From Acidobacteriota bacterium (GTDB lineage Bacteria > Acidobacteriota > Terriglobia > Bryobacterales > Bryobacteraceae): 62,377 bases of DNA. The notes below the pieces were generated by a model. That model had not been told where the DNA came from. It saw nothing but the letters and a program-made list of their open reading frames with translations, and searched no databases. This document shows, piece after piece, positions 50,734 through 62,377 of the stretch. Each line of letters starts with the position of its first letter. Within the stretch, counting starts at the first letter, position 1. Position numbers and translations under genes: made by a program. The stretch covers positions 1 through 62,377 of the forward strand of contig JACOSH010000079.1 in NCBI GenBank assembly GCA_016178945.1, in the 5' to 3' direction.

Positions 50734-51410
50734 TTACTCGGCGGCCCTGGAAAGTGACTTCACCAGCTCGTATAAGAATGTTTGCCCTTCGAAGAACGAT
50801 GCAACGCTCATCCGCTCGTCGCGCCCGTGAAAGCGGATGTCGTCCCGGTCCATGAAGAAGCCCTGGACACCGTCGGTCGGAATTCCAATCGCACGAAGGT
50901 GCAGGCCGTCGGTCGCTCCCATGACCATAATCGGAACCGCGGGCACACCCGGCCACATTGTGCCGGTGAGCCGGCTGGCCGCTCGAAACACGTCCTCGCG
51001 CACCGGTGACGCCGGACCCCTGCTGACGTCCCCGGAGATGGTGAGGCTCACCTGGCCGTCTCCGATTACCCGATTCAGAGTGCTCCGCACGTATTCAACG
51101 GAATCCTCGGGGAGAACCCGGCAGTTCACAGTCGCCGCCGCCAGTTGTGGCAACGCGTTCATGGCGTGCCCACCCTCGATCTGTGTCGACACGCAGGTGT
51201 GCGCAACGTGGCATTCCAGGCCGGCGATACCCGCGCAACCTGCTGCATCGCCTCCGTGGACCCCCTGCCCGCCGAGGCAAGTTGGTCTTTCGCCGGCCCG
51301 GTCTCAATCTTCGACATGGCCTCGAAGTACGCCCGCGTAACCTCATTGGTCTTCAGCGGAAAACCAAATGTTTGCAGCCGGCCGAGAGCGGCTGCCAGGG
51401 AAACAACCAA
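50734..51410 (-). pseudogene. M20-family metallopeptidase remnant: 5' half missing, 1-nt frameshift near 51198
   Basis: ORF 51159..51410 reads ...LGRLQTFGFPLKTNEVTRAYFEAM...WNATLRT and then goes out of frame. ORF 50734..51192 continues TCVSTQIEGGHAMNALPQLAAATVNCRVLP...FHGRDERMSV, the M20 dimerisation and C-terminal catalytic regions. No N-terminal catalytic half lies upstream. Confidence 0.6.
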
Positions 51411-51633
51411 CGAAGAGTTTCGCTCTCACTGGCATAAAGTTACGCACTCTGATCCGACGAGGCCGCAGGACCCGGTCACTAACGCTCGCATCGCTTGTCA
51501 TTTCCCCATGCGCGCCCATTGCGCCCGATGTCTGTCCCGCTCAAATCACAGCAGATGTTGGTGCTGTCCACGAGAACTTCGGGGCCAGACTCCGCAGCGC
51601 AACCTAACGAGTGTCGACGCAACTCCGTCCCGA

Positions 51634-52095
51634 TCAGGCCGAACTCGCGTCTTCCCCTACCGGTCGGATCTCTAAAACGCCAGCCTCCAGTAGTTTCGCA
51701 ACTATCAACACGCAGCTGCGGTAAACATGGTCCGGCGCGGTACCGTCGATCTCTGACAGAATCATTCCAATAGATCGTTGGCCGTCCAGCCTTGTCAGGA
51801 AGGTCCGCTCCACTGATGAAAGAGTCCAAATCTTCTCGACCTTCTCAGTGCCCGAATGTATGCGGTGAGCAACAAGCGTGCACTCCTGCCACATTACTTC
51901 GTGTTGGGCGGACCATGCGGGTGCCAACGGTTCAATCATCGCGCGATCATAAGTCAACATCTGATCGATGCGCATGAGATGGGCAGTCGAGAATCGGACG
52001 TGCGATGACTGGGTCGTCCGCAAGCGCAAGTATTTCAGAAATTGACGCCGATCCAGCGGTATTCGGTCGCGCATTAAGTCGCGCCCTCCCTTCAC
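51634..52095 (-). CDS. PqqD-family / RiPP-recognition-element-like protein (stand-alone)
   Basis: The C-terminal ~75 aa read KIWTLSSVERTFLTRLDGQRSIGMILSEIDG...VLIVAKLLEAGVLEI. This fits the PqqD winged-helix pattern (xLNxxxxxIWxLLDGxxTxxEI...L...G.L). The N-terminal ~50-70 aa are unassigned and an internal Met start is possible. Confidence 0.55.
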   Translation of the reverse strand: MKGGRDLMRDRIPLDRRQFLKYLRLRTTQSSHVRFSTAHLMRIDQMLTYDRAMIEPLAPAWSAQHEVMWQECTLVAHRIHSGTEKVEKIWTLSSVERTFLTRLDGQRSIGMILSEIDGTAPDHVYRSCVLIVAKLLEAGVLEIRPVGEDASSA

Positions 52096-52100
52096 GTAGA

Positions 52101-53588
52101 TTATGGCAGACGATAGAGCACGATGTTTCCATGCATCGTGGCGACTTCGTCCACGACCGATGTGTCACCCTGAAGCGGGGAGGGGTTAAACAGCCCCAGG
52201 TGATAGTGCGTTACGCCGGGAAGGGGTTGCGATAGATAGCTCGTCGAAACGGAATGGGTGCCAAATGCCTCCCAGATGTATGGCAGAGGACTAACCACCA
52301 CGGCGCTGGATGGAAGTTGCCTGGACCATCGCCGGATGGCTTCGTGCTCACGGTGCGCGCTGGCGTAGAGTGCGTTCAAAGATATCCAGATCTCGCTGCC
52401 ACAAGTTAGCGAATACAGGGAAAACACAAGGAGTAGGGCGGCCCCGAGCCGAGCGCGATAGCGGTGAGTCCTCAACTGCAAGATGGAAGCGCCCGCTACT
52501 GCCAACGCGGCTAAAGGAAACAGCAAGAAACGGCTCCCTCCCGGAGCCCGGTATTGGCCGACCGAGTACAGCGTGAGCAGGCTGAAGTGTACGACCAGCC
52601 AGAGAAGCAACGCCTGCCAAGTCGTACGGAAAGGCCCCGGAATCCAGGCGAGCCAGCAGAGCCCCACGATTGCCGGAAGGACAAACGGCCACGGTCCGAA
52701 CTCGGCAAGAAAAGCGAAGTTCGCACCGGCATTACCCACCGCGAAAGACAGAGAAAAGCGGGATTCCGGGCGCTGCGAAAGATAGAACCGGGCGAGCGTT
52801 GCGGCGCGGGGGACCAGATCAGCCAGCAACGGGAAGCCGGCCAGCAGGAGAATAACGATGGCTCGTCGGCTTTGCACGATCCTGGTGTTTCTCAACAAGA
52901 GCACGAGCGGAATACCCAATAGAACACCGTCCCAGCGTACGTTGACGGCGAAAAGCGCCGCCATGATCGCTACCAGTGCCCAGTCATTCGGGGATCGCGA
53001 TCTGATGGCCTCAGTGGCGGCCCAGAAGCAGAGGACAGCCAGCAAGACCGCAAGGGGTTCCGCCGAGTTTGAACGATGCCAGCCTCCGACTACGGGATGC
53101 AAGCCGTAGGCGGCCCCAGCAACGATACCTGCGGTAATCGAACCGGACAACCGGCAAGCGAACACCGCTACCAGAAGGACAGTCAACGCGCCGCAGCATT
53201 CGTTGAAAGTGGCCAGTCCACGTTCGGGGCCTAAGCAAGCCACGAGCGGGGCGGCGAGCGTTGGGAAACCGGCCGGCCATTTGTAGCGCTCTACATGTTT
53301 AACCTCGCTTGTGAAAGCCGTGGTGATCGAAGCGCCGTAGCCGAAAAGAACGTTGACGGCCATGTTTCCATAGGCATCTTCGTCGAACAATAGACGATGT
53401 TCTTGCGGATAACCATGGATTCGGCAGATCACCAAGCCCCACAGCAGGCTAAGGCCGAGCACCTTCAGGCACCAGCGCTCGCCTGGATTCCAGGAACGGA
53501 TTAGACGAATGCAGAGGACCGTTACCAAGGCCCAAATGATAAGAGCGGAGAGGATCACGCCAAACGAAATCAGGCCAAGCTTGATCAT
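52101..53588 (-). CDS. polytopic GT-C-fold-like membrane protein (ArnT/PMT_2-like glycosyltransferase candidate)
   Basis: About 495 aa from ATG 53588 (ATGA overlap with the upstream stop). It has many TM helices and an early-loop LLFDEDAYGNMAV resembling the DE..Y motif of GT-C enzymes. A ~100-aa C-terminal soluble domain follows. Confidence 0.45.
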   Translation of the reverse strand: MIKLGLISFGVILSALIIWALVTVLCIRLIRSWNPGERWCLKVLGLSLLWGLVICRIHGYPQEHRLLFDEDAYGNMAVNVLFGYGASITTAFTSEVKHVERYKWPAGFPTLAAPLVACLGPERGLATFNECCGALTVLLVAVFACRLSGSITAGIVAGAAYGLHPVVGGWHRSNSAEPLAVLLAVLCFWAATEAIRSRSPNDWALVAIMAALFAVNVRWDGVLLGIPLVLLLRNTRIVQSRRAIVILLLAGFPLLADLVPRAATLARFYLSQRPESRFSLSFAVGNAGANFAFLAEFGPWPFVLPAIVGLCWLAWIPGPFRTTWQALLLWLVVHFSLLTLYSVGQYRAPGGSRFLLFPLAALAVAGASILQLRTHRYRARLGAALLLVFSLYSLTCGSEIWISLNALYASAHREHEAIRRWSRQLPSSAVVVSPLPYIWEAFGTHSVSTSYLSQPLPGVTHYHLGLFNPSPLQGDTSVVDEVATMHGNIVLYRLP

Positions 53589-55327
53589 GCAAGCGGGTCC
53601 CGGGTCCCGCCGAAGAACTGCCGAAACCACACGGAGAGAGAGTAGATGCCCCACGCTAGATAGAGAAGTTCGGGGTCACGGGGGATTTTCGAACAGGCCG
53701 CGAACACTTGGCCGACCGCATCTGGACAGAGAATGCCGAAGTCGCAGAGACCGCTTCGCAAAACCGAAGCGCCACGGCGGGCCACAACGGTCGGGGAAAA
53801 ATGCTCATTGATGGAAATAGAATGTCCAAAGCCGCTCTTAGGCTCATCCACGGGAAACATCGGTGCGCGGCGCAGGAGTAGTGCCTTGAGCAGAGGTTTC
53901 CCGCCGTTCTGCCTGGGACCCAGACGGAGCGAAAGTGGCAGAGCCAGAACGAACTCGATCAGTTTCTTGGACAGAAAGGGGAAGTGCACGGCGCTGGCGC
54001 CATGCACGGCAGAAGTATACACGGACATGATCGAAGGGCGGGCAAAAAGGAGGTATTGAAACAGCAGAGCCGCAGCAGGATCGCCACCGGCCTCTCGCCC
54101 CGCTTGAACGAGTAGCGACTCGGTTGCCGTGGGCAGTACGCAGCGCAGGAACTCGGGCGTATAGAGAAAACGGCGGGCAAACCGGTTTACGGGGCGAAAC
54201 AGACTCGTGGCCAGGAAAGTGCTCCGCCTGGACGATCCGCGCCCATGCTCGCCACCCGATTCCCGGCAGAGTAGGCGACAGAGAACGTCATCGGCGAGGA
54301 AGATCCCATCCGCGCCGCTGCCGCTGACCAGATGTGGCGCCTGGCTGCCCACTCGTTCGCAGAACCAGTCCACGTACACTGCCGGGAAGGAAAATACCGG
54401 GGCGCGCCACCTGCGAGTAACCTTGGAAGGCTCAGCGGCCGCAGAGGGAAACGTCTCGGAGCGAAAGGGAACACCAAGCCACTTGGCACGCTCCCGTGCC
54501 TTTTCCAGTTCCTCGCGCGCCTCGCCACCGAGACTGTGCGCAACCACTCGGCCCGGCTCACAGCACTCTTGCAGCAGCGAGCCAAGCAAGGTGGAATCCA
54601 CACCGCCCGAAAACAAGAGGGCGAAATCGCAACCGCACGAAGCAATCTCCGACACACGATCCCGGAGAATGGCTTCCAGGAAATCCACTGCCGCCGGTTG
54701 GCTAAGTGTGAGTGGGGCCGGGCGCGGCGACCAGATACTGGTTCGCATTGTCGGCTTTAGGTTGTCGACTAGCAGGATGCTGTTCGGCGGAAGCTGGCGG
54801 ATTCCTCGAAATCCGGTCCAGGGAGCAGGGATGTGAAGCAAGCTGAAATAGGCGTGGATCGATTGAGCACAGGGGCGCGTGTCGCCGAAGCGTGCCAGCA
54901 GCGCCGTGAGACTGTCGGAAAAACAGAGAACGCCATCGCGCTCGAAGTAAAACATGGGGCGGCAACCGAAAGTGTCCGCCACTGCCCAAAAGCGGTTTCG
55001 CCGTCGATCGTAGCCTGCAGCGAGGAATTGCCCCTCCGGAAGTGAAAGGACGTTGTGACTATCGGAGTGATAGGCATGGTGAATTTCTCGGGCAGGTGAA
55101 TGTTTTTCTCCGTAGAGGAAGCCACGGACCGCAGTGAAGCCATCTTGGCTCTGATAAGTGGCACACTGCGGCAACCGTCTTTGGATGGCGAGGTAGCCAC
55201 AATCCCCCACCGCCCTCACCTCCCAATCTGGGGCGGTAGGCGGTGGGGGGAGTCTCTCACAGGAGCCTGGTGAGCGGAAACCAACTGCACCAAATAGTCC
55301 TTCCTCGGGCTCAGAGAATCCGTTCAT
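53585..55327 (-). CDS. asparagine synthetase B-family protein lacking the N-terminal Cys nucleophile (ATP-dependent amide-forming enzyme, lasso-cyclase-like)
   Basis: ATG 55327 (ATGA overlap). It starts MNGFSEP, not MCG. RFWAVADTFGCRPMFYF, the PP-loop ALLFSGGVDSTLL and SGSGADGIF are present. Confidence 0.7.
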   Translation of the reverse strand: MNGFSEPEEGLFGAVGFRSPGSCERLPPPPTAPDWEVRAVGDCGYLAIQRRLPQCATYQSQDGFTAVRGFLYGEKHSPAREIHHAYHSDSHNVLSLPEGQFLAAGYDRRRNRFWAVADTFGCRPMFYFERDGVLCFSDSLTALLARFGDTRPCAQSIHAYFSLLHIPAPWTGFRGIRQLPPNSILLVDNLKPTMRTSIWSPRPAPLTLSQPAAVDFLEAILRDRVSEIASCGCDFALLFSGGVDSTLLGSLLQECCEPGRVVAHSLGGEAREELEKARERAKWLGVPFRSETFPSAAAEPSKVTRRWRAPVFSFPAVYVDWFCERVGSQAPHLVSGSGADGIFLADDVLCRLLCRESGGEHGRGSSRRSTFLATSLFRPVNRFARRFLYTPEFLRCVLPTATESLLVQAGREAGGDPAAALLFQYLLFARPSIMSVYTSAVHGASAVHFPFLSKKLIEFVLALPLSLRLGPRQNGGKPLLKALLLRRAPMFPVDEPKSGFGHSISINEHFSPTVVARRGASVLRSGLCDFGILCPDAVGQVFAACSKIPRDPELLYLAWGIYSLSVWFRQFFGGTRDPLA

Positions 55328-56370
55328 ACACCGGTGGCCAGTTGAAGCTTCAAGCGATAAGACAAGCAACCACCAACGCACTCTCCGGAGCCTCGGAGTC
55401 CACATGACTGGCAGGCGTCGAACAGGTAACTGTGAGCCTGTGATCGAAAGTGGACAGCCAGTGACGCTGCCAGCGGATCTCTAGAAGGGTACCGGATCTC
55501 ATCCAAGGAAACGCGCTTTCCCGCCGACAGCGGCAGGCAGTGCGCCACGCTGAGATCAGGCCTAACGTCCAGGAGCGGATGGCAAACCGACTTAAACAAG
55601 ATGCCACAATCGGAGAGTTCTCCGAGACCCCGGCGGATCGCGGCCTCCGCCGTCTCGCCGTCACGCTGCTGCGCCGCGAACATACACGCCACGAAACCAC
55701 AGTCGCACAGGAGCTTGATTCCATGTTGCTTCAGGTCGATGCCCTGGCGTTTCAATGACTGGCCGATCGCATGGAACCGCTCTCGATCGGCAAAACGGCT
55801 TGCGTGATTCAGCATCGGATGGCTCAGGCTGATTCGGATGACTTTGTTCAGGTGGAATTCCCGAATCAGGTTCGCGTAAGGCAAGAGGTCGAGCCCGTCT
55901 CCACAGGCTGTCACCGACAGGGTGCAGGCGGACTCCATCCAGCGAAGATTCTCGCGGATGGCCTTGATCTCCGCAGTTGGCTGGCCTGGGCGCAGGTAGG
56001 CGTTGACCAGGAAGAACAGTCTGCGGCCTAGCGGGGAATAAAGAATGTCGCGAAGTTCTTCGCTGCGGGACCCGCCAAATACGCCATTCGTGTTCACGCC
56101 TACATCCACATCGAGCGCCAACGCTTCGCGAAGGAATTGAGCGATCAGCGGGTGCTGTGTGGGCTCTCCGCCGAGCAAGGAAATGCGCGGGGACCGCCAG
56201 ACTTCGATTGCGAGATGAAGCAGTTCTGCATAGCGCTCGGCCGTGAGGAAGCTTCGCTCGCTGGAACCCATAACCGGCAAGGTCCCGGAGGCCCTGATCT
56301 CTGGAACGCTCTGCTCGAAGCAGAAATCGCATTCGCGCCGGTTGCACCAGGTAGTGACGAGGATGTTCAT
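55324..56370 (-). CDS. radical SAM enzyme with non-canonical CX4CX2C motif and SPASM-like C-terminus
   Basis: It begins MNILVTTWCNRRECDFCFEQ; I verified the DNA as TGC AAC CGG CGC GAA TGC GAT TTC TGC. The SLLGGEPTQHP GGE motif is present. The C-terminal Cys clusters are CDCGFVAC, CHP...C and CQSCGLRGSGECVGGC. Confidence 0.7.
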   Translation of the reverse strand: MNILVTTWCNRRECDFCFEQSVPEIRASGTLPVMGSSERSFLTAERYAELLHLAIEVWRSPRISLLGGEPTQHPLIAQFLREALALDVDVGVNTNGVFGGSRSEELRDILYSPLGRRLFFLVNAYLRPGQPTAEIKAIRENLRWMESACTLSVTACGDGLDLLPYANLIREFHLNKVIRISLSHPMLNHASRFADRERFHAIGQSLKRQGIDLKQHGIKLLCDCGFVACMFAAQQRDGETAEAAIRRGLGELSDCGILFKSVCHPLLDVRPDLSVAHCLPLSAGKRVSLDEIRYPSRDPLAASLAVHFRSQAHSYLFDACQSCGLRGSGECVGGCLSYRLKLQLATGV

Positions 56371-58028
56371 TGTGCGACACCTGCCAGAGATTGCCCAATC
56401 GAACCCTCCAACCGGGCGGCTGCGTCAGAGTCATTCGTATCGAGCCAGATGCCGAGAAAGACGTTATGCCAAAACAAGTCAGCGGCCTCGCCGGATTCAC
56501 GTGCGGCGGGTGGATTGCTGGCGGTTGTCACCTTAAGGCCAGCGGCCCGGAGGCGCTCAAGCGCTCTTCCGGAGAACGGAGTGAGCAACTCGGCGAACCC
56601 GCGAAACCCGTGCCAGTTCTCGCCGAACCCTTCTTTCGGACGGCTCAAGATGGCTTCCGGAATATCACGCTGGAATGCCTGGCGCAAGACGTTCTTGGTG
56701 AAACCGTCGAAGGCACCCGGGGTGATAAGTGTGTCCCAGGGTAAAGCAAAGGCCGCTGCGACGACCACCGGATTCAGCAAGGGACAGCGGACATCTACAC
56801 CGAACGGAGCTCCCAACCGTGTTCCGGCCAAGAAGTAGGGAAAGCACGTTAACTCCTGCTCGACGGTGGCGTCAACCATGTCGTTAAGTTCTCCCGAGTG
56901 GGGCTCCTTCGGCAGGCAGGCGAGCGCTTGTTCAACCACTTCTTCAGGCGGTTCCCATCCAGTAACAGCCGCAACGTGCCCCAGACGCCAAGTCAGAAGT
57001 TCGCGCCTCAGCGCGGGAAGTTCGTGGCAGCCCTCCGTCTGGCGCTGAACGTATCGCCGTAGCATGAACATCTGGTGCCGGTAACCGAGGAAGAGTTCGT
57101 CACCGCCCTCGCCAAGCAGAATGCGGTCCGTCATGCCGACGGTCCGGCGGAGTAGCAAGTATAGGTAGAAAAGCGGGAGAACGCAGACCGGTTCTTGTAG
57201 AGCCAAGTGGAAATGGGGAAGCAGAGCGAACTCGCGCTCCTCGAAATCGAATGAAATCAGCTCCGATCGGCTGCTTCTGCATAATGTTGCTAGCCCCTGG
57301 TCCTCACCTGAGCCAATGCGTCTGAGCGTAACGGCGCGGACCGGCGGTCCATCTTTGGGCAGGGCCGCCGCCACCACCGCCGAGTCCAGGCCGCCGGACA
57401 GCGCGATGGCAGGACGTGAGGCGGACCGCAACTCTTCACGCACGGCGTGGAAAATACTTCCGCGAAGCGAGTCCTCGATCTGCTGCCAACGCTGCGTACG
57501 CCGAATCCCTTTAGGGATTCGTGTATGGCGCGCAACGCTAACACGATCTGCCCTGAGGAGGACGTGATTGCCCGGCGCCGGCTGCTGGATTTCCTTGTAG
57601 AGAGTGAGGGGCGGCACGACGAAGCGGAACAAATAGTACCGCAGAAGCCCCGCGGGGTCTATGTGGAACGAAACGGGAACTTGCTTGAGCAGTGTGTGCA
57701 GGCCGTTGGAGCAGTAGAGAGTCTCGCCGGAGACACAATAGAAAAGAGGGACGAAGCCGAAAGAGTCGCGAGCCAGGAAGATGCCAGCGCCGCGCCGATC
57801 GGCGACGACGCACGCCCAGGCTCCGTGCAACTCCGAGAAACTGGCGGCACCCGTGCGCAAATATCGGTCAAGTAGAGTCCTGGCGTCAGCCGCCCCGCAA
57901 GGCGTGCCCAGGAGCAAGACTTCGATGCCATGCTCGCTCGCAGTCGAGATCGCCGGATCAGCCTCATCGTGCCTGAGCAAACTCAGGCCGAGGGGGGTGC
58001 CGGCGGGAATCGTTACTGTGGCCAGCAC
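56367..58028 (-). CDS. second asparagine synthetase B-family protein lacking the N-terminal Cys nucleophile
   Basis: GTG start 58028 (MLATVTIPAG). GIFLARDSFGFVPLFYC and the PP-loop AIALSGGLDSAVV are present, and the synthetase domain is full length. Confidence 0.7.
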   Translation of the reverse strand: MLATVTIPAGTPLGLSLLRHDEADPAISTASEHGIEVLLLGTPCGAADARTLLDRYLRTGAASFSELHGAWACVVADRRGAGIFLARDSFGFVPLFYCVSGETLYCSNGLHTLLKQVPVSFHIDPAGLLRYYLFRFVVPPLTLYKEIQQPAPGNHVLLRADRVSVARHTRIPKGIRRTQRWQQIEDSLRGSIFHAVREELRSASRPAIALSGGLDSAVVAAALPKDGPPVRAVTLRRIGSGEDQGLATLCRSSRSELISFDFEEREFALLPHFHLALQEPVCVLPLFYLYLLLRRTVGMTDRILLGEGGDELFLGYRHQMFMLRRYVQRQTEGCHELPALRRELLTWRLGHVAAVTGWEPPEEVVEQALACLPKEPHSGELNDMVDATVEQELTCFPYFLAGTRLGAPFGVDVRCPLLNPVVVAAAFALPWDTLITPGAFDGFTKNVLRQAFQRDIPEAILSRPKEGFGENWHGFRGFAELLTPFSGRALERLRAAGLKVTTASNPPAARESGEAADLFWHNVFLGIWLDTNDSDAAARLEGSIGQSLAGVAQ

Positions 58029-58037
58029 GGGTCCACT

Positions 58038-59519
58038 TCAAGCCATCCGAATCTGTACCAACTTGGTGGAGGGCATTGGCGAGTCCTGTGGAATCCATCC
58101 AGTCGAGGGCTCCGTGACGTCGCCAAAACCGTAGAGGGAGAAGATCTGCGCGCGAGTCAGTTCCCGAATAACAAAGCAGCGATTCCGATTGACAGTATCT
58201 TTTGGGTCCCCGGTGGCAGAGAGTTTGGCCGCGCAATCGCCCGCGCAATGGTAGCGGGCGAAGCAGCCCTGGCAGGGCGCCTTTTCCGCCGCAGTCCATT
58301 GTGCGGCGGCTCGAATCGTATCCATATTCACCCCGAACCGGCCCGTGGCGGGATCTAAGGCCCCGATATCGAAGTGGTGAATGCGCGGATCGTCCTTGGC
58401 GAAGACTTCGTAACAGGAAGTAACGCGGCCATCCTGGGTCACATTGAAGGCTCCGGAAACCGCCTCGCAAAACCTGTTTGTGATCTGGTCAGCTCGTGCG
58501 CCGGCATACTTGAGACGGCGACCATGCTGCCTGGCGATCAAGCGCCCCTGCAGAAAGCCATCGACAAACATCGCCGGATCGACTTCGCGCTCGTCGGTTT
58601 CGATGGCCCGCCCTTCAGGGAAACTGGGCTCTAGCATGAGATCTGCTGTCTGCGAGACTTTGCAAAGATACTCAACGACCTCGGGAATCCGCCCGGCCGA
58701 TCGCCGCGTGATTGTACAGCGGATTCCATAAGAGACACCCAGTTCGTCAAGGATACGCAGCGAGCGCTCGACGATGCGGGAAGAGGAGTTTCTCTCGTCT
58801 TCCATCCCTTCGCCCTTAATGAGGCTATCCGCACGCTCGTGTCCCCCCGGTGAGGACAACGGCCTCTGCGCATCCTGGATATCGGGTGGACCGTCAAGAC
58901 TCACCGTGATGTTGCGCAGTTTGGGAGCCAGCCAGCGCAGACGCTTCTCAGCGATAATGCCGTTCATACCGGCTTCGAAGTCGCACGCAAGGTCCTCCTC
59001 CAAACAGCGGCGCTCGGCGTACTCGATGCATTTCGTCAGGATCGGCCAAGCGAGAGTGGGCTCCCCATCACCATGGAAGATGACCGTGATCTTCAATGAG
59101 TTCGTAGCGATTGCGTTGTCTATTACGAAGTCCAACGCCGCCTTGGCCGTTTCCCATGGCATCACCGAGTCGGTGTCGCCGCCGCGGGCGTAGCAGTACG
59201 AGCAGTGGAGATTACAGTTCCCGGTCAGAAACAGGGTCACCGTCGTGGGCTGGTACGCCCCACCAGTCGACTCGGCTACGCCCGGGGGAGCATCCGGCAG
59301 TTCCTCGAGCAGCCCCATCCGCTCCACGGCTTCCAGGAACGGCTTCTGCCTTAGCCCGGCATCCAGTCCGCCGTTCGCACCCGCGAGGGCACGGAGGATC
59401 TTCTCACCCGCAGAGTTCACGCTGAAGGCGAGCCGCCGGAGCGGCGCGTAAGCGATCTGTTCCGCAGACGTTCTGCCAGGAATAAAGAAAACGGGTGTCC
59501 GTAGCGCCGGCTGCATCAT
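58038..59519 (-). CDS. radical SAM/SPASM peptide-maturase-type enzyme with N-terminal RRE-like domain
   Basis: 493 aa with AGGAG 5 nt upstream of the start. The N-terminal ~90 aa (SVNSAGEKILRALAG...FLEAVERMGLLEE) are PqqD/RRE-like. FLTGNCNLHCSYCY (CX3CX2C), HGDGEPTL and the SPASM motif CQGCFARYHCAGDC are present. Confidence 0.8.
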   Translation of the reverse strand: MMQPALRTPVFFIPGRTSAEQIAYAPLRRLAFSVNSAGEKILRALAGANGGLDAGLRQKPFLEAVERMGLLEELPDAPPGVAESTGGAYQPTTVTLFLTGNCNLHCSYCYARGGDTDSVMPWETAKAALDFVIDNAIATNSLKITVIFHGDGEPTLAWPILTKCIEYAERRCLEEDLACDFEAGMNGIIAEKRLRWLAPKLRNITVSLDGPPDIQDAQRPLSSPGGHERADSLIKGEGMEDERNSSSRIVERSLRILDELGVSYGIRCTITRRSAGRIPEVVEYLCKVSQTADLMLEPSFPEGRAIETDEREVDPAMFVDGFLQGRLIARQHGRRLKYAGARADQITNRFCEAVSGAFNVTQDGRVTSCYEVFAKDDPRIHHFDIGALDPATGRFGVNMDTIRAAAQWTAAEKAPCQGCFARYHCAGDCAAKLSATGDPKDTVNRNRCFVIRELTRAQIFSLYGFGDVTEPSTGWIPQDSPMPSTKLVQIRMA

Positions 59520-59549
59520 CGTGCTCCTATCACCAAAGTTGTCGTGCTC

Positions 59550-61115
59550 CTAATACCAGTACGAAAGCGTGTATCCGCCCCGTCCGCCTTGCGTATTGCA
59601 CGTGCATACTGTGTTGCACGTACAAACTGTGACCCATGTGGGCGACAGCGGGGCGCTCACGCAGTTGCAGATGCAGACAGCACCAGCGGGCAGGGGCGTT
59701 CCGCACGGAACCGTCTTCGTGGTCCACCGTTCAAAGGCCGAATCCCACACCCAGGTGATTCTCTCGTTGTGGGTACTGGTGACAGAAACGGAATTGCACG
59801 TGCATACGCAATCCTGGAAAGGGAGTTTTGCGTCTGCGGGCTTGGACTCTTTGAAGCTGCTGGCGGCTGGGTCTACGACGATTGCGGTGGCGATCTGACG
59901 GCCCCGCTCCGCAGTTCCGACGATAACGCGGCCCTCGGCGCTGCCCCACGCGTAAACGTGGGGTTTTGAGGCACATGACACACAGGTGACGGAAGCGACC
60001 CTGGAGTCGGGGGTCTCCCACTTGAACGGCGAAGGCTGGAACTCGTGGACAATCACTATGTCTCTCCCAACGCCATCGGCGGCCTTCTTCTTCGCCATCA
60101 CCACAGATTCGAGGCCGGAAGAAAAGGCGCGCAATGTCTCCACTATGTCCAGCCGCTCGCCCTGTTTGTCCGGGCGTCCGGAAGGAAACGCGAACAGGTC
60201 GAGCGTGCCCTCTGTCTTACGTAAGTAGCCGACCTTCGTACCGTTGGCCGAGACGATCAACTCGTCGAACGTCGCCACCGGATTCGGAAACGCGGTCACT
60301 TTCGGGACGTCGGTGTCGACTAACAGCACGGCCTTGGCCCCCGCGACGTAGGCGACCCTGGGCGATTCGGGGACGGTACCGGTTGACCGCACCTCCCACG
60401 CGCCACCGGCCACGCCAAGCTGGGACCGAATCGATGCACCAACCTTCAGTATCGCCGTTCGCTTCCCCGTCGCCGAATTCAACAGATGCAGATCGCCGTT
60501 CCTGTCTATCTTGACGATGCGCAGCCCATCGTGGGAAAAGGCGCCAGTCTTCCAGTCCTTTGCACCTGTTTCAAACAGCCGCTTCTGGCCAGCCATGTCG
60601 AAGCAGAGCAGTTTGCCTTTTCGTGTGAGAACAGCAAGACGTTCACCCTTGCCCCAGAAGAAATCGGTTACCATCTCCGAGGGATTAATACGCACAGGGG
60701 CGCGCCGCGCGCGCGTTCCTTTCACCTCCGGCGGAGGGGCCGGAGCTTTGTACGGGAAATCCAGTGGCTTCGAAAGATGGCCGGACTCCCATAATGTCAA
60801 CCGCCCGGCTCCGGCGAGGGCGGCGAGCCAGCGATGGTCATGGGAGAATTCGACCCTTTTCACCGCGCCCGTGACGGCAAGATTGCAGACCACGTAGGAG
60901 ATGGCGCCGCGACGTTGGGACGCGGCCTCTACCTCTACTGCGGACCCGGCAGCACCGATTCCCAGCGCGGCGGCTGCCTTTGCTAGGTCGCGGCGGCTTA
61001 CCGGACGTCCAGTCGCCGGGTCGGGCTCATGCAACTCAGAAACCTGACCGATGGCGGGCTCGTCGGAGTCCGCTTCTAGTTTGTTCGGAACGGAATCCTC
61101 ATTATTGTCCGACAT
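59550..61115 (-). CDS. Tat-signal beta-propeller-like protein with C-terminal cysteine-ladder tail (candidate maturation substrate)
   Basis: 521 aa with a strong SD (AAGGAGG). An acidic N-terminus is followed by SRRDLAKAAAALGIGAAGSAV (twin-arginine motif plus h-region). WD40-like repeats follow (VEFSHDHRWLAALAGAGRLTLWE; GAFSHDGLRIVKIDRNGDLHLLN). The last 87 aa read DCVCTCNS...VCICNCVS...VCTCNTVCTCNTQGGRGGYTLSYWY. Confidence 0.7.
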   Translation of the reverse strand: MSDNNEDSVPNKLEADSDEPAIGQVSELHEPDPATGRPVSRRDLAKAAAALGIGAAGSAVEVEAASQRRGAISYVVCNLAVTGAVKRVEFSHDHRWLAALAGAGRLTLWESGHLSKPLDFPYKAPAPPPEVKGTRARRAPVRINPSEMVTDFFWGKGERLAVLTRKGKLLCFDMAGQKRLFETGAKDWKTGAFSHDGLRIVKIDRNGDLHLLNSATGKRTAILKVGASIRSQLGVAGGAWEVRSTGTVPESPRVAYVAGAKAVLLVDTDVPKVTAFPNPVATFDELIVSANGTKVGYLRKTEGTLDLFAFPSGRPDKQGERLDIVETLRAFSSGLESVVMAKKKAADGVGRDIVIVHEFQPSPFKWETPDSRVASVTCVSCASKPHVYAWGSAEGRVIVGTAERGRQIATAIVVDPAASSFKESKPADAKLPFQDCVCTCNSVSVTSTHNERITWVWDSAFERWTTKTVPCGTPLPAGAVCICNCVSAPLSPTWVTVCTCNTVCTCNTQGGRGGYTLSYWY

Positions 61116-61195
61116 GAGGTGCCTCCTTGTTTGTCACCAACAGATACACCGTGGTTGTGTGACCAGGTTCTTGCCGCAATATTCCGCTCTGAAGG

Positions 61196-62377
61196 TCATC
61201 CATGGGCCACCTCCATTGCGGTATTACCGTGCTCCACCATTCTTAGTTCGGATTCTGGGATGTAAGTGATTCGTTTGCTTCCCCGTGCCCTCAGACAGGC
61301 TTCGACAAACTCGAAAGGTTCTTCCCGCAGAAGCGCGTCCTCGGCCAAGCGTCGGATCTCAGCCCGCGGGTAGTCTGTGTTCGCCGCCAAGTCGTACAGG
61401 CACTCCCAAAACAGCGTCTTGGGATTCTTGCCTTGCTGCATGAAGCGGTTCCAGTTGAATCGCTCCTCTTTGGCTCCTTCCACTTGGTCGGGATGAATGA
61501 TTTCACCTTCCAACGCTCGCCGTGTGGTTAGGTACCCAGGAAAGTAGAGGAGCGAGTACGTGTTCAGGACGTAAGGCCTGGGTATCGAAAGGAGCAGTTC
61601 GAGCACTTCCCGCCGGTCGCTGTCAGCGGAGAACGGATCGTCGATGATGAGGTCAAAAATGTTGTCGAAACCATACTGCTTGCCGAGACGCGCAACACAC
61701 AGGATGTCCTCGACTTTGTAAGGGCGGTCGTAGTACTCTCGGGCTACTTCGGGTGAGCCCTGAATACCCATGGACAACCATTTTACCCCGGCCCGCGCAA
61801 GATGGGGGATGACGCGCTCATTATTGATCCGCGGATCGGTCTGGCAGAAAAACGGGAGACCGATTTCCTGCCGGTACGCTTCGGCGAACTCGCTGACCCA
61901 CTGGTGGTCGGTCGTGAAGACCTCGTCGTAAAAGTAGATCTTGCGGAGTTCGGGGTTGCGGCGCGTGACTTCCTGCAGTTCCGCGATCACGCTCGCAACG
62001 GTACGGCGCCGGAGGAAGTTTCCCAAGCCCTTGTAGACCTGGCGCTGAACCGGATTGACACAGAACTCGCACCTATAGGGGCAACCGCGCGACGCCATCA
62101 TCGAGTACCAGTGCATTGAGCCCTGGACTTGCGTGTAGCGGGAGTTCAGATAGATGTGGTGGCCGTCGTTCTCAAAGTCGGGCCAAGTGATCGAATCCAG
62201 GTCCTGGACAAGCGGAAGCATCTCGTTCCGCAGAACTTCGTCACCCTGTAGAACTGGCAGGATCGTTCCAGGGTCACTGGCTGCGGCGCGGCGGCTCCAC
62301 ACGTTTGGACAGGTCTCAAGAGGTTGACCATGCTCCAAGCGTCGAAGAAAGATCGGCAACGCTTCCTCACACTCCCC
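61196..62377 (-). CDS. B12-binding-domain (class B) radical SAM enzyme (partial; N-terminus beyond window end)
   Basis: The frame is open to the window edge (GECEEALPIFLRR...). MMASRGCPYRCEFC (CX3CX2C), IYFYDEVF and LSMGIQGSPE are present. This layout is typical of B12-rSAM enzymes, whose cobalamin domain would lie upstream. Confidence 0.7.
   Translation of the reverse strand, partial: GECEEALPIFLRRLEHGQPLETCPNVWSRRAAASDPGTILPVLQGDEVLRNEMLPLVQDLDSITWPDFENDGHHIYLNSRYTQVQGSMHWYSMMASRGCPYRCEFCVNPVQRQVYKGLGNFLRRRTVASVIAELQEVTRRNPELRKIYFYDEVFTTDHQWVSEFAEAYRQEIGLPFFCQTDPRINNERVIPHLARAGVKWLSMGIQGSPEVAREYYDRPYKVEDILCVARLGKQYGFDNIFDLIIDDPFSADSDRREVLELLLSIPRPYVLNTYSLLYFPGYLTTRRALEGEIIHPDQVEGAKEERFNWNRFMQQGKNPKTLFWECLYDLAANTDYPRAEIRRLAEDALLREEPFEFVEACLRARGSKRITYIPESELRMVEHGNTAMEVAHG

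Follow-up and report, generated by a model that had tools for sequence, protein, structure and literature searches.

Radical S-adenosylmethionine (SAM) enzymes with a SPASM domain are known as maturases mainly of short peptides. Whole exported proteins matured in this way are rare: they comprise sulfatases, QhpC and, since 2026, HxsA. The anaerobic sulfatase-maturating enzyme (anSME), which makes one formylglycine in a C/SxPxR motif, and the chaperones of the TorD/DmsD type have in common that they act in the cytoplasm, before export, on a full-size protein bearing an export signal, which they modify or check. QhpC is a small Cys/Trp polypeptide in which the SPASM enzyme QhpD installs Cys thioethers and which later lies in the periplasm beside a propeller subunit. 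In the HXS antiphage system, HxsA is matured by the radical SAM enzymes HxsB and HxsC and the small protein HxsD before it reaches the periplasm (PMC13128918). We analyzed here a locus of an Acidobacteriota bacterium (contig JACOSH010000079.1 of assembly GCA_016178945.1, whose 62,377 nucleotides, taken whole, are called the window), where a minus-strand open reading frame (ORF) at 59550-61115 encodes a protein of 521 residues, the target protein. Its last 87 residues, DCVCTCNSVSVTSTHNERITWVWDSAFERWTTKTVPCGTPLPAGAVCICNCVSAPLSPTWVTVCTCNTVCTCNTQGGRGGYTLSYWY, form a ladder of Cys motifs, and we judge it probable that this tail is the core, i.e. the modified region, of a protein-sized radical SAM substrate.

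The composition of the tail differs sharply from that of the rest of the protein. It has 11 Cys in 87 residues, versus 4 in the remaining 434 (Fisher p = 1.2e-6), and six CxC motifs versus none. The elements that the initial annotation had listed are all present, namely DCVCTCNS, VCICNCVS, the tandem VCTCNT-VCTCNT, the VTCVSCAS further upstream, SRRDLAK and the terminal YWY. The two 18-nt units behind the VCTCNT pair differ at 4 positions, all of them synonymous third-codon positions. Since the differences are synonymous only, the repeat is kept by selection on the protein, and we rejected a recent DNA duplication as its source. A word-indexed search of 5.8 billion proteins returned only three full-length homologues (37-42% BLASTP identity). 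When these are aligned with the target protein, the tail is 64-71% identical and the propeller that precedes it 32-40%, so that no other part of the protein is conserved as well as the tail. Residues C436, C438, T439, C440, S442, V443, V445 and T446 are invariant in the 4 full-length homologues; C438, C440 and V443 remain so throughout the 14-sequence alignment A4, and Y519 and W520 are invariant in the alignments A1, A2 and A4.

As the initial annotation had supposed, the tail corresponds to no named domain. No match to it was found in Pfam, NCBIfam or PADLOC (the target protein and 10 diverse relatives were scanned with Pfam and NCBIfam), and the tail had no significant match when its sequence was searched against the PDB. 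AlphaFold2 (AF2) models the tail alone, from a 23-sequence alignment, with a mean predicted local distance difference test (pLDDT) of 44.5, and residues 440-521 are below 50 in the full-length model. That the unmodified tail lacks a confident fold is what one would expect of a core peptide.

The tail is one form of a widespread, so far unnamed C-terminal module. When the last 110 residues were searched exhaustively with phmmer against 1.84 billion representatives, 165 hits were obtained, of which nearly all have a PCG...CxCNC motif. These hits, together with the loci of a genome scan described below, provided a set of 242 non-redundant tails. The module has the form xTLPCGSPIPAGAVCxCNCV plus 0-9 copies of [VI]C[TS]C[NDV]x, with YW[YH]PN as the most frequent end. 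After a short hairpin, the consensus of the 242 tails is YTLPCGSPIPAGAVCTCNCV, where the positions P, C, G, P, G, A, three Cys, N/D and V each reach a conservation of 93-100%. A spacer separates this core motif from the repeats, of which there are most frequently two, and a Gly/Ser/Tyr stretch leads to the end. The ends themselves are of several types: YW[YHR]Px in 127 tails, CxC[VI]P[VI].. in 51, and YWY in 8, which form the clade of the window. Carriers of the module are spread over Chloroflexota, Acidobacteriota, Nitrospira, Desulfobacterota, Planctomycetota, Proteobacteria, Bacteroidota and others. A word-indexed profile search returned only 36 hits, mostly fragmentary, and all of them bear the names "hypothetical" or "WD40 repeat protein". 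Searches of full texts by motif and by keyword found no description of the module in the open literature, subscription journals being outside their reach; in the eLife 2020 paper on conflict systems, SPASM enzymes appear only in unrelated systems.

The part of the protein that precedes the module is variable, except for its N-terminus. In the target protein, AF2 gives a confident all-beta domain (pLDDT mostly > 90) whose best PDB matches by Foldseek are seven-bladed WD40 propellers, with 7bie and 5yzv on top, which bears out the propeller assigned initially. A conserved CxxC (VTCVSCAS) lies inside the propeller region. Among the relatives, the middle domain may be a WD40 propeller or an SH3 domain that follows a Pro/Thr linker, and in proteins of 123-170 residues it is all but missing. 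The shorter carriers include full-length examples down to 123-134 residues (P0046, P0025 and P0029), and those in genome loci have 166-299 residues. On sequence grounds the middle domain is dispensable, as the SH3 and short lipoprotein versions keep both leader and tail.

The N-terminal 71 residues are of low confidence in the full-length AF2 model. They include a twin-arginine translocation (Tat) motif recognizable at the sequence level: S40-R-R-D-L-A-K, then a mild h-region AAAALGIGAAGSAV, then VEA. A conserved strand (PAIGQVSEL in the window) stands upstream of it. Across the family such a strand is found about 14 residues before RRxFL, as PEIYAV, PQVFAV, FELxRV...PEIVPV or PxIGQVSEL. In many relatives the h-region is followed by a lipobox, and relatives match Tat hidden Markov models (HMMs). 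These family-wide Tat and Tat-lipoprotein signals fit the earlier proposal that the protein is exported after modification in the cytoplasm.

An indication of what the module is for comes from its neighbors. Scanning one genome per species, we found 128 relatives and fetched 76 loci, including that of the isolate Flexilinea flocculi TC1 (Chloroflexota). Adjacency was counted in the 73 loci with a tail ORF, radical SAM genes being called by local profile searches. Such a gene is present in 69 of the 73 loci, at 1 kb or less in 68 and at 100 bp or less in 59. Tail homologues without a nearby radical SAM gene, whose frequency the initial annotation had proposed to examine, are thus not common. 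As an internal control, the density of radical SAM genes is 3.06 per 10 kb at 0-2 kb from the tail gene, and falls to 0.15 and 0 at 6-10 kb.

Two types of enzymes recur in these loci, a SPASM type of ~430-520 residues and a type of ~330-350 residues that we call rSAM2, and the window has both. Enzymes of the SPASM type flank the tail gene in most of the genome loci. The set of enzymes follows the type of tail. Loci with aromatic-ended tails usually have three SPASM-type genes and one rSAM2-type gene, whereas a single SPASM-type gene, and in no case rSAM2, accompanies CxCVPV and other ends (rSAM2 orthologues in 35 of 46 aromatic-ended loci vs 0 of 30 others, p = 2.5e-12). Some aromatic-end clusters have an additional HemN/ChuW-like radical SAM enzyme, encoded by a separate gene in Flexilinea (L022) and as a SPASM fusion in the metagenomic locus L004. 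Two families of small proteins accompany the enzymes. One, of ~95 residues, occurs in 17 loci and is PqqD-like by eye, Pfam giving no PqqD match for its members; the other, of ~160 residues (c2), carries RRxxL close to its N-terminus and is PqqD-like at the C-terminus. Partners of the sortase or exosortase type do not recur in the loci, and no cluster protein reaches its NCBIfam cut-off in the three clusters scanned (window, L004, L022). In its genomic setting, the module is thus tied to dedicated radical SAM/SPASM enzymes and to small PqqD-like proteins by an adjacency that looks obligate.

The association is also seen among the close homologues. An orthologue of the SPASM enzyme, 54-64% identical to the window copy, lies directly 3' of the target gene in L001-L003, and a B12-binding radical SAM gene lies 5' of it wherever the sequence extends (58% identity in L001, where the enzyme has 511 residues, and 75% over a fragment in L003). 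Two more members of the YWY clade, L083 and L084, have the order B12-binding and/or rSAM2-type enzyme, small protein, target, then SPASM enzyme where the contig continues. Synteny therefore holds in every locus of the clade. In all members other than the window, the upstream radical SAM gene is separated from the target by the gene of an unannotated protein of 140-196 residues. In the window only an 80-nt gap (61116-61195) is found there, and tblastn located no copy of the protein, which in L001-L003 has ~190 residues, anywhere in the window. Genes of the GT2 type recur in two loci of the clade (L001 and L083).

In the window, the target gene is part of a minus-strand operon whose genes overlap or are separated by short gaps and which extends from at least 62377 to 51634 (Table 1). 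Its order is: B12-binding radical SAM enzyme, target, SPASM enzyme, first asparagine-synthase-like (AsnB-like) protein, rSAM2, second AsnB-like protein, a membrane protein resembling PMT_2 and GT-C glycosyltransferases, and a distant member of c2. The SPASM enzyme has the CX3CX2C motif (C102, C106 and C109) and a complete SPASM motif (C351, C369, C416, C419, C425, C429 and C448), all conserved in 88 of 88 family enzymes. Its best PDB match is CteB (5WGG, E = 9e-17), the nearest relative with a solved structure. With radical SAM genes so regularly at its side, the tail is very probably a site of radical SAM/SPASM modification, as had been proposed from the Cys ladder, and very probably carries enzyme-made cross-links placed on the whole protein. 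By analogy with CteB, PapB, SCIFF and QhpD, Cys thioether links are the probable chemistry. The second enzyme, rSAM2, has a non-canonical Cx4Cx2C (C9, C14, C17) and eight conserved C-terminal Cys, including a Cx2Cx7Cx3C stretch; it has no PDB match by sequence. The B12-binding enzyme is below cut-off for the NCBIfam families of its class, and its place in the cluster is the same in L083.

Table 1. Positions of the features of the target protein and of its gene cluster. Coordinates refer to the window unless a locus is named.
Feature	Position	Strand	Remarks
C-terminal Cys-ladder tail	59553..59813	-	residues 435-521; proposed modified core region; 11 of 15 Cys, six CxC
First Cys unit DCVCTCNSVSVT	59778..59813	-	residues 435-446; extra unit, typical of the YWY-ending clade and nearest relatives
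Family-defining motif PCGTPLPAGAVCICNCV	59658..59708	-	residues 470-486
Hexapeptide pair VCTCNT-VCTCNT	59592..59627	-	residues 497-508
Terminal YTLSYWY	59553..59573	-	residues 515-521; aromatic end motif, the clade's variant of YW[YH]PN
Seven-bladed WD40-like beta-propeller	59841..60908	-	residues about 70-425; AF2 and Foldseek
CxxC VTCVSCAS	59967..59990	-	inside propeller region
Leader-like region and twin-arginine signal	60918..61115	-	residues 1-66
Conserved strand PAIGQVSEL	61032..61058	-	
SRRDLAK	60978..60998	-	
B12-binding radical SAM enzyme	61196..62377	-	partial, ends at window edge; Pfam Radical_SAM
Radical SAM/SPASM maturase	58038..59519	-	493 residues; 30 nt downstream of target gene
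Asparagine-synthase-like protein 1	56367..58028	-	553 residues; Pfam Asn_synthase E = 1.3e-30
Second radical SAM enzyme, rSAM2	55324..56370	-	348 residues; Cx4Cx2C at residues 9/14/17
Asparagine-synthase-like protein 2	53585..55405	-	Pfam Asn_synthase E = 1.2e-16
Polytopic membrane protein, PMT_2 (GT-C glycosyltransferase-like)	52101..53654	-	Pfam 28.2 bits vs cut-off 26.1
153-residue protein, distant c2 member	51634..52095	-	candidate leader-binding partner
Intervening small protein in YWY-clade loci	L001 9426-9989; L002 1-507; L003 318-887; L083 6693-7283; L084 1193-1615		

Compared with the described systems, the cluster is closest to those of ranthipeptides and SCIFF peptides (CteB-CteA, PapB-PapA, Tte1186-SCIFF). 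In both cases a SPASM enzyme with the full set of seven Cys adjoins a gene with a Cys-rich, repetitive C-terminus; PqqD-like proteins occur in the clusters as well, the nearest enzyme of known structure is CteB, and the top NCBIfam models include PapB and SCIFF. However, the scores for these models are 3-6 fold below the cut-offs (nif11 103.1 vs 518.7, PapB 91.8 vs 340, SCIFF 86.4 vs 425, CcpM 80.4 vs 500), and the relatives of the enzyme in L004 and L022 are likewise below those of the named maturases. The substrate here is a protein of 521 residues with a Tat signal and a propeller between leader and core, instead of a peptide of ~50 residues. Its core motif is new (PCGxPxPxGAxCxCNCV, CTCN repeats and an aromatic end), clusters of the family have up to five radical SAM enzymes, and Pfam and NCBIfam reveal neither protease nor exporter in the operon.

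Other systems share the logic of the locus and differ in its components. HXS, too, combines a whole exported protein bearing short repeats with two radical SAM enzymes and a small accessory protein. Yet its repeats are His-Xaa-Ser, where those of the module are based on Cys, and its carrier combines a non-Tat signal with a peptidoglycan-binding domain. Furthermore, the window SPASM enzyme scores 61.3 bits against the HxsB model TIGR03978 (cut-off 370), and HXS is almost confined to Pseudomonadota, whereas the module spans many phyla. PADLOC gave no defence match beyond generic radical SAM similarity. With anSME and the Tat proofreading chaperones, the likeness lies in the modification or check made in the cytoplasm before export; the SPASM enzyme scores 42.8 against the anSME model, for a cut-off of 349, and there is no TorD-like protein in the cluster, the candidate for binding the leader being PqqD-like. 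By the tests that we ran, the tail system is a member of none of the ranthipeptide/SCIFF, anSME, quinohemoprotein amine dehydrogenase (QHNDH) and HXS systems.

These comparisons, together with the genomic data, lead us to propose the following course of events. The target protein would be made in the cytoplasm, where the extended n-region of its Tat signal (PAIGQVSEL...SRRDLAK) would act as a leader, gripped by the 153-residue c2-like protein or by the N-terminus of the SPASM enzyme. The leader peptide PAIGQVSELHEPDPATGRPVSRRDLAK is accordingly given as the putative ligand of the 153-residue protein or of residues 1-90 of the SPASM enzyme. This enzyme would abstract hydrogen atoms and link the Cys of the ladder to nearby residues, most likely as thioethers. 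The rSAM2 enzyme and the extra SPASM paralogues would act on features specific to the aromatic YW(Y/H)-ended tails, and radical SAM enzymes of the methyltransferase type, of the B12 class in the window and of the HemN class in Chloroflexota, may add methyl groups. The two AsnB-like enzymes, which lack Cys as nucleophile, could make amide bonds. The finished, folded protein would then be exported by Tat, and the propeller would bear a rigid, cross-linked C-terminal knot outside the cytoplasm.

If the module is matured in this manner, it adds to the few known cases a large family from many phyla, with a new core motif, a rich set of enzymes and a modification tied to Tat export. By comparison with the systems above, the novelty would lie in radical SAM/SPASM maturation applied to a new and widespread family of Tat-exported proteins with a new core motif. 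We put forward a broader view tentatively, and with less than even confidence: that the family may constitute phylum-spanning and so far undescribed "protein-sized RiPPs" (peptides made on ribosomes and modified after translation). These would be surface proteins exported by Tat, and often anchored by lipid, in which two to five dedicated radical SAM enzymes rebuild the constant Cys-ladder module; their Tat n-region would double as leader, and they would carry a new pattern of cross-links or a protein-derived cofactor. The defined search motif, the cultured carrier Flexilinea flocculi TC1 and the predictions that assign enzymes to parts of the tail make the chemistry, and likewise the role of these surface proteins, directly testable.

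Several observations weigh against the tail as a modified core or against parts of the mechanism. That the genes are neighbors does not establish the tail, as opposed to another part or product, as the substrate, and in four genome loci the tail is present with no radical SAM gene within 10 kb. The matches to characterized thioether maturases are far below the curated cut-offs, which leaves the type of reaction as an analogy. Among the 242 tails, Val follows the second Cys in 26% of the repeats, and Asn/Asp therefore cannot be the universal acceptor. The link of c2 to PqqD is weak, with a single member matching Pfam PqqD at E = 0.015, and so is that of the 153-residue protein to c2, although an HMM made from 26 c2 proteins ranks it first in the window (E = 6e-5). 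Pfam detected no RiPP recognition element in the SPASM enzyme. Finally, the window protein itself is not scored by Tat HMMs at E <= 0.01, though its relatives match.

Among the other explanations, the one that fares best, while still unlikely, is that the tail binds a metal or an Fe-S cluster in the manner of the CxC motifs of metallothioneins. It would be loaded in the cytoplasm, and the radical SAM neighbors would serve another purpose or aid cofactor assembly. The density of CxC and CxCxC motifs fits this, as does the lack of a confident AF2 fold for the apo tail, which is also the case of apo-metallothioneins; moreover, Tat export is typical of cofactor-bearing proteins. However, no known metal-binding domain, and in particular no metallothionein or ferredoxin family, matches the target protein or 10 relatives in Pfam and NCBIfam, or the tail in the PDB. 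A simple metal site would also not lead one to expect that PqqD-like proteins and SPASM enzymes of the peptide-maturase type are coupled to the tail so tightly, that the enzyme set changes with the type of tail, or that residues other than ligands are conserved in fixed register (T/S between the Cys, N/D after them, PxPxGA). Once modified, the tail may also bind metal.

Decidedly unlikely, in our opinion, is that the tail is cut off after modification and freed as a cross-linked peptide, with the propeller as an oversized leader or carrier. The model for such an arrangement is provided by fused borosin precursors, OphMA among them. The core is indeed C-terminal, the N-terminus is leader-like and the short members of the family resemble RiPP precursors. 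Against this, neither protease nor peptide exporter was found with Pfam and NCBIfam in the operon at 51.6-62.4 kb, and the Tat and lipoprotein signals, the Pro/Thr linkers and the SH3 or WD40 domains point to a mature, exported surface protein. Besides, in some relatives the module is followed by a further domain, Peptidase_S74, which implies that the module is retained on the protein.

It is very unlikely that the tail is a structural or sorting module rich in disulfides and oxidized after export, with radical SAM neighbors that are coincidental or active elsewhere. Cys spaced i, i+6 over two hexapeptides could allow cross-strand disulfides, as in the beta-helices of beetle antifreeze proteins, and the conserved YW[YH]PN at the extreme C-terminus resembles a sorting tag. 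Yet radical SAM adjacency in 68 of 73 loci across phyla is not a coincidence, export by Tat rather than Sec argues against folding by periplasmic oxidation, and no partner of the sortase or exosortase type recurs. Least credible of all, and rejected here, is the fusion that the initial annotation evoked as a loose analogy, in which the QHNDH beta (propeller) and gamma (quinone-bearing) subunits would form one amine dehydrogenase with cysteine tryptophylquinone: a propeller, a small Cys/Trp-rich domain with an invariant near-terminal Trp and a SPASM enzyme matching the QhpD model (E = 1.2e-24) speak for it, whereas the match to that model (TIGR03906) reaches 86.9 bits for a cut-off of 453 and covers residues 67-222 only, the generic radical SAM core, the propeller matches WD40 proteins with no QHNDH beta subunit among the top 50 Foldseek hits, Pfam and NCBIfam show no dihaem alpha subunit, QhpE, QhpF or QhpG at 51.6-62.4 kb, and the propeller is not constant in the family, many members having an SH3 domain or no middle domain.

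The tails of some relatives are extended. In P0148, P0136, P0041, P0116 and P0124, the C-terminal ~100 residues after CTCVPV match Peptidase_S74, the "chaperone of endosialidase" (E = 6e-13, 5e-11), directly after the module. In phage fibres this domain drives the folding of trimers and then cleaves itself off. Its presence is a hint that the Cys module may belong to a trimeric structure like a fibre, and that self-cleavage may give rise to ends of the CTCVPV type. In P0106, P0141, P0043, P0147 and others, CTCVPxCQAH opens instead an extension of ~130-150 residues starting with CQAH(R/K)LLHxD. Two examples of it had no Pfam match, and it may be a second unnamed domain.

Two further features of the genome loci concern gene content. 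Several tail-bearing genes lie side by side in L065, a metagenome-assembled genome of Anaerolineales with six in 20 kb, and also in L008, L019 and L074. Few radical SAM genes are nearby, so one set of enzymes may serve many substrates. In L019, L021-L023 and L028 (Flexilinea/Leptolinea, Anaerolineae), an upstream gene at the edge of the cluster encodes a membrane protein of ~750-810 residues whose repeated segments, judged by eye, resemble domains of the formylglycine-generating enzyme (SUMF1).

Within the window operon, the AsnB-like and PMT_2 genes have no counterpart in the other 82 loci. They were therefore rejected as family-wide partners, and are rather an add-on of the window cluster or of its clade. 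Both AsnB-like proteins are without the N-terminal Cys nucleophile, which lasso cyclases likewise lack; the N-terminus of the first reads LATVTIPAG. The second probably starts at M27, judging from the ATGA overlap with the rSAM2 stop codon that this start would give.

Scans for tRNAs, promoters and terminators yielded nothing useful for the borders of the cluster. The operon block (51000-62377) has a G+C content of 0.59-0.61, against 0.62-0.69 in the rest of the window (1-50000), a difference that suggests a horizontally acquired island. At its edge, a minus-strand ORF of 152 residues (50734-51192) matches only the C-terminal third of an M20 peptidase model (positions 324-472 of 474), and this truncated gene may mark the point of insertion.

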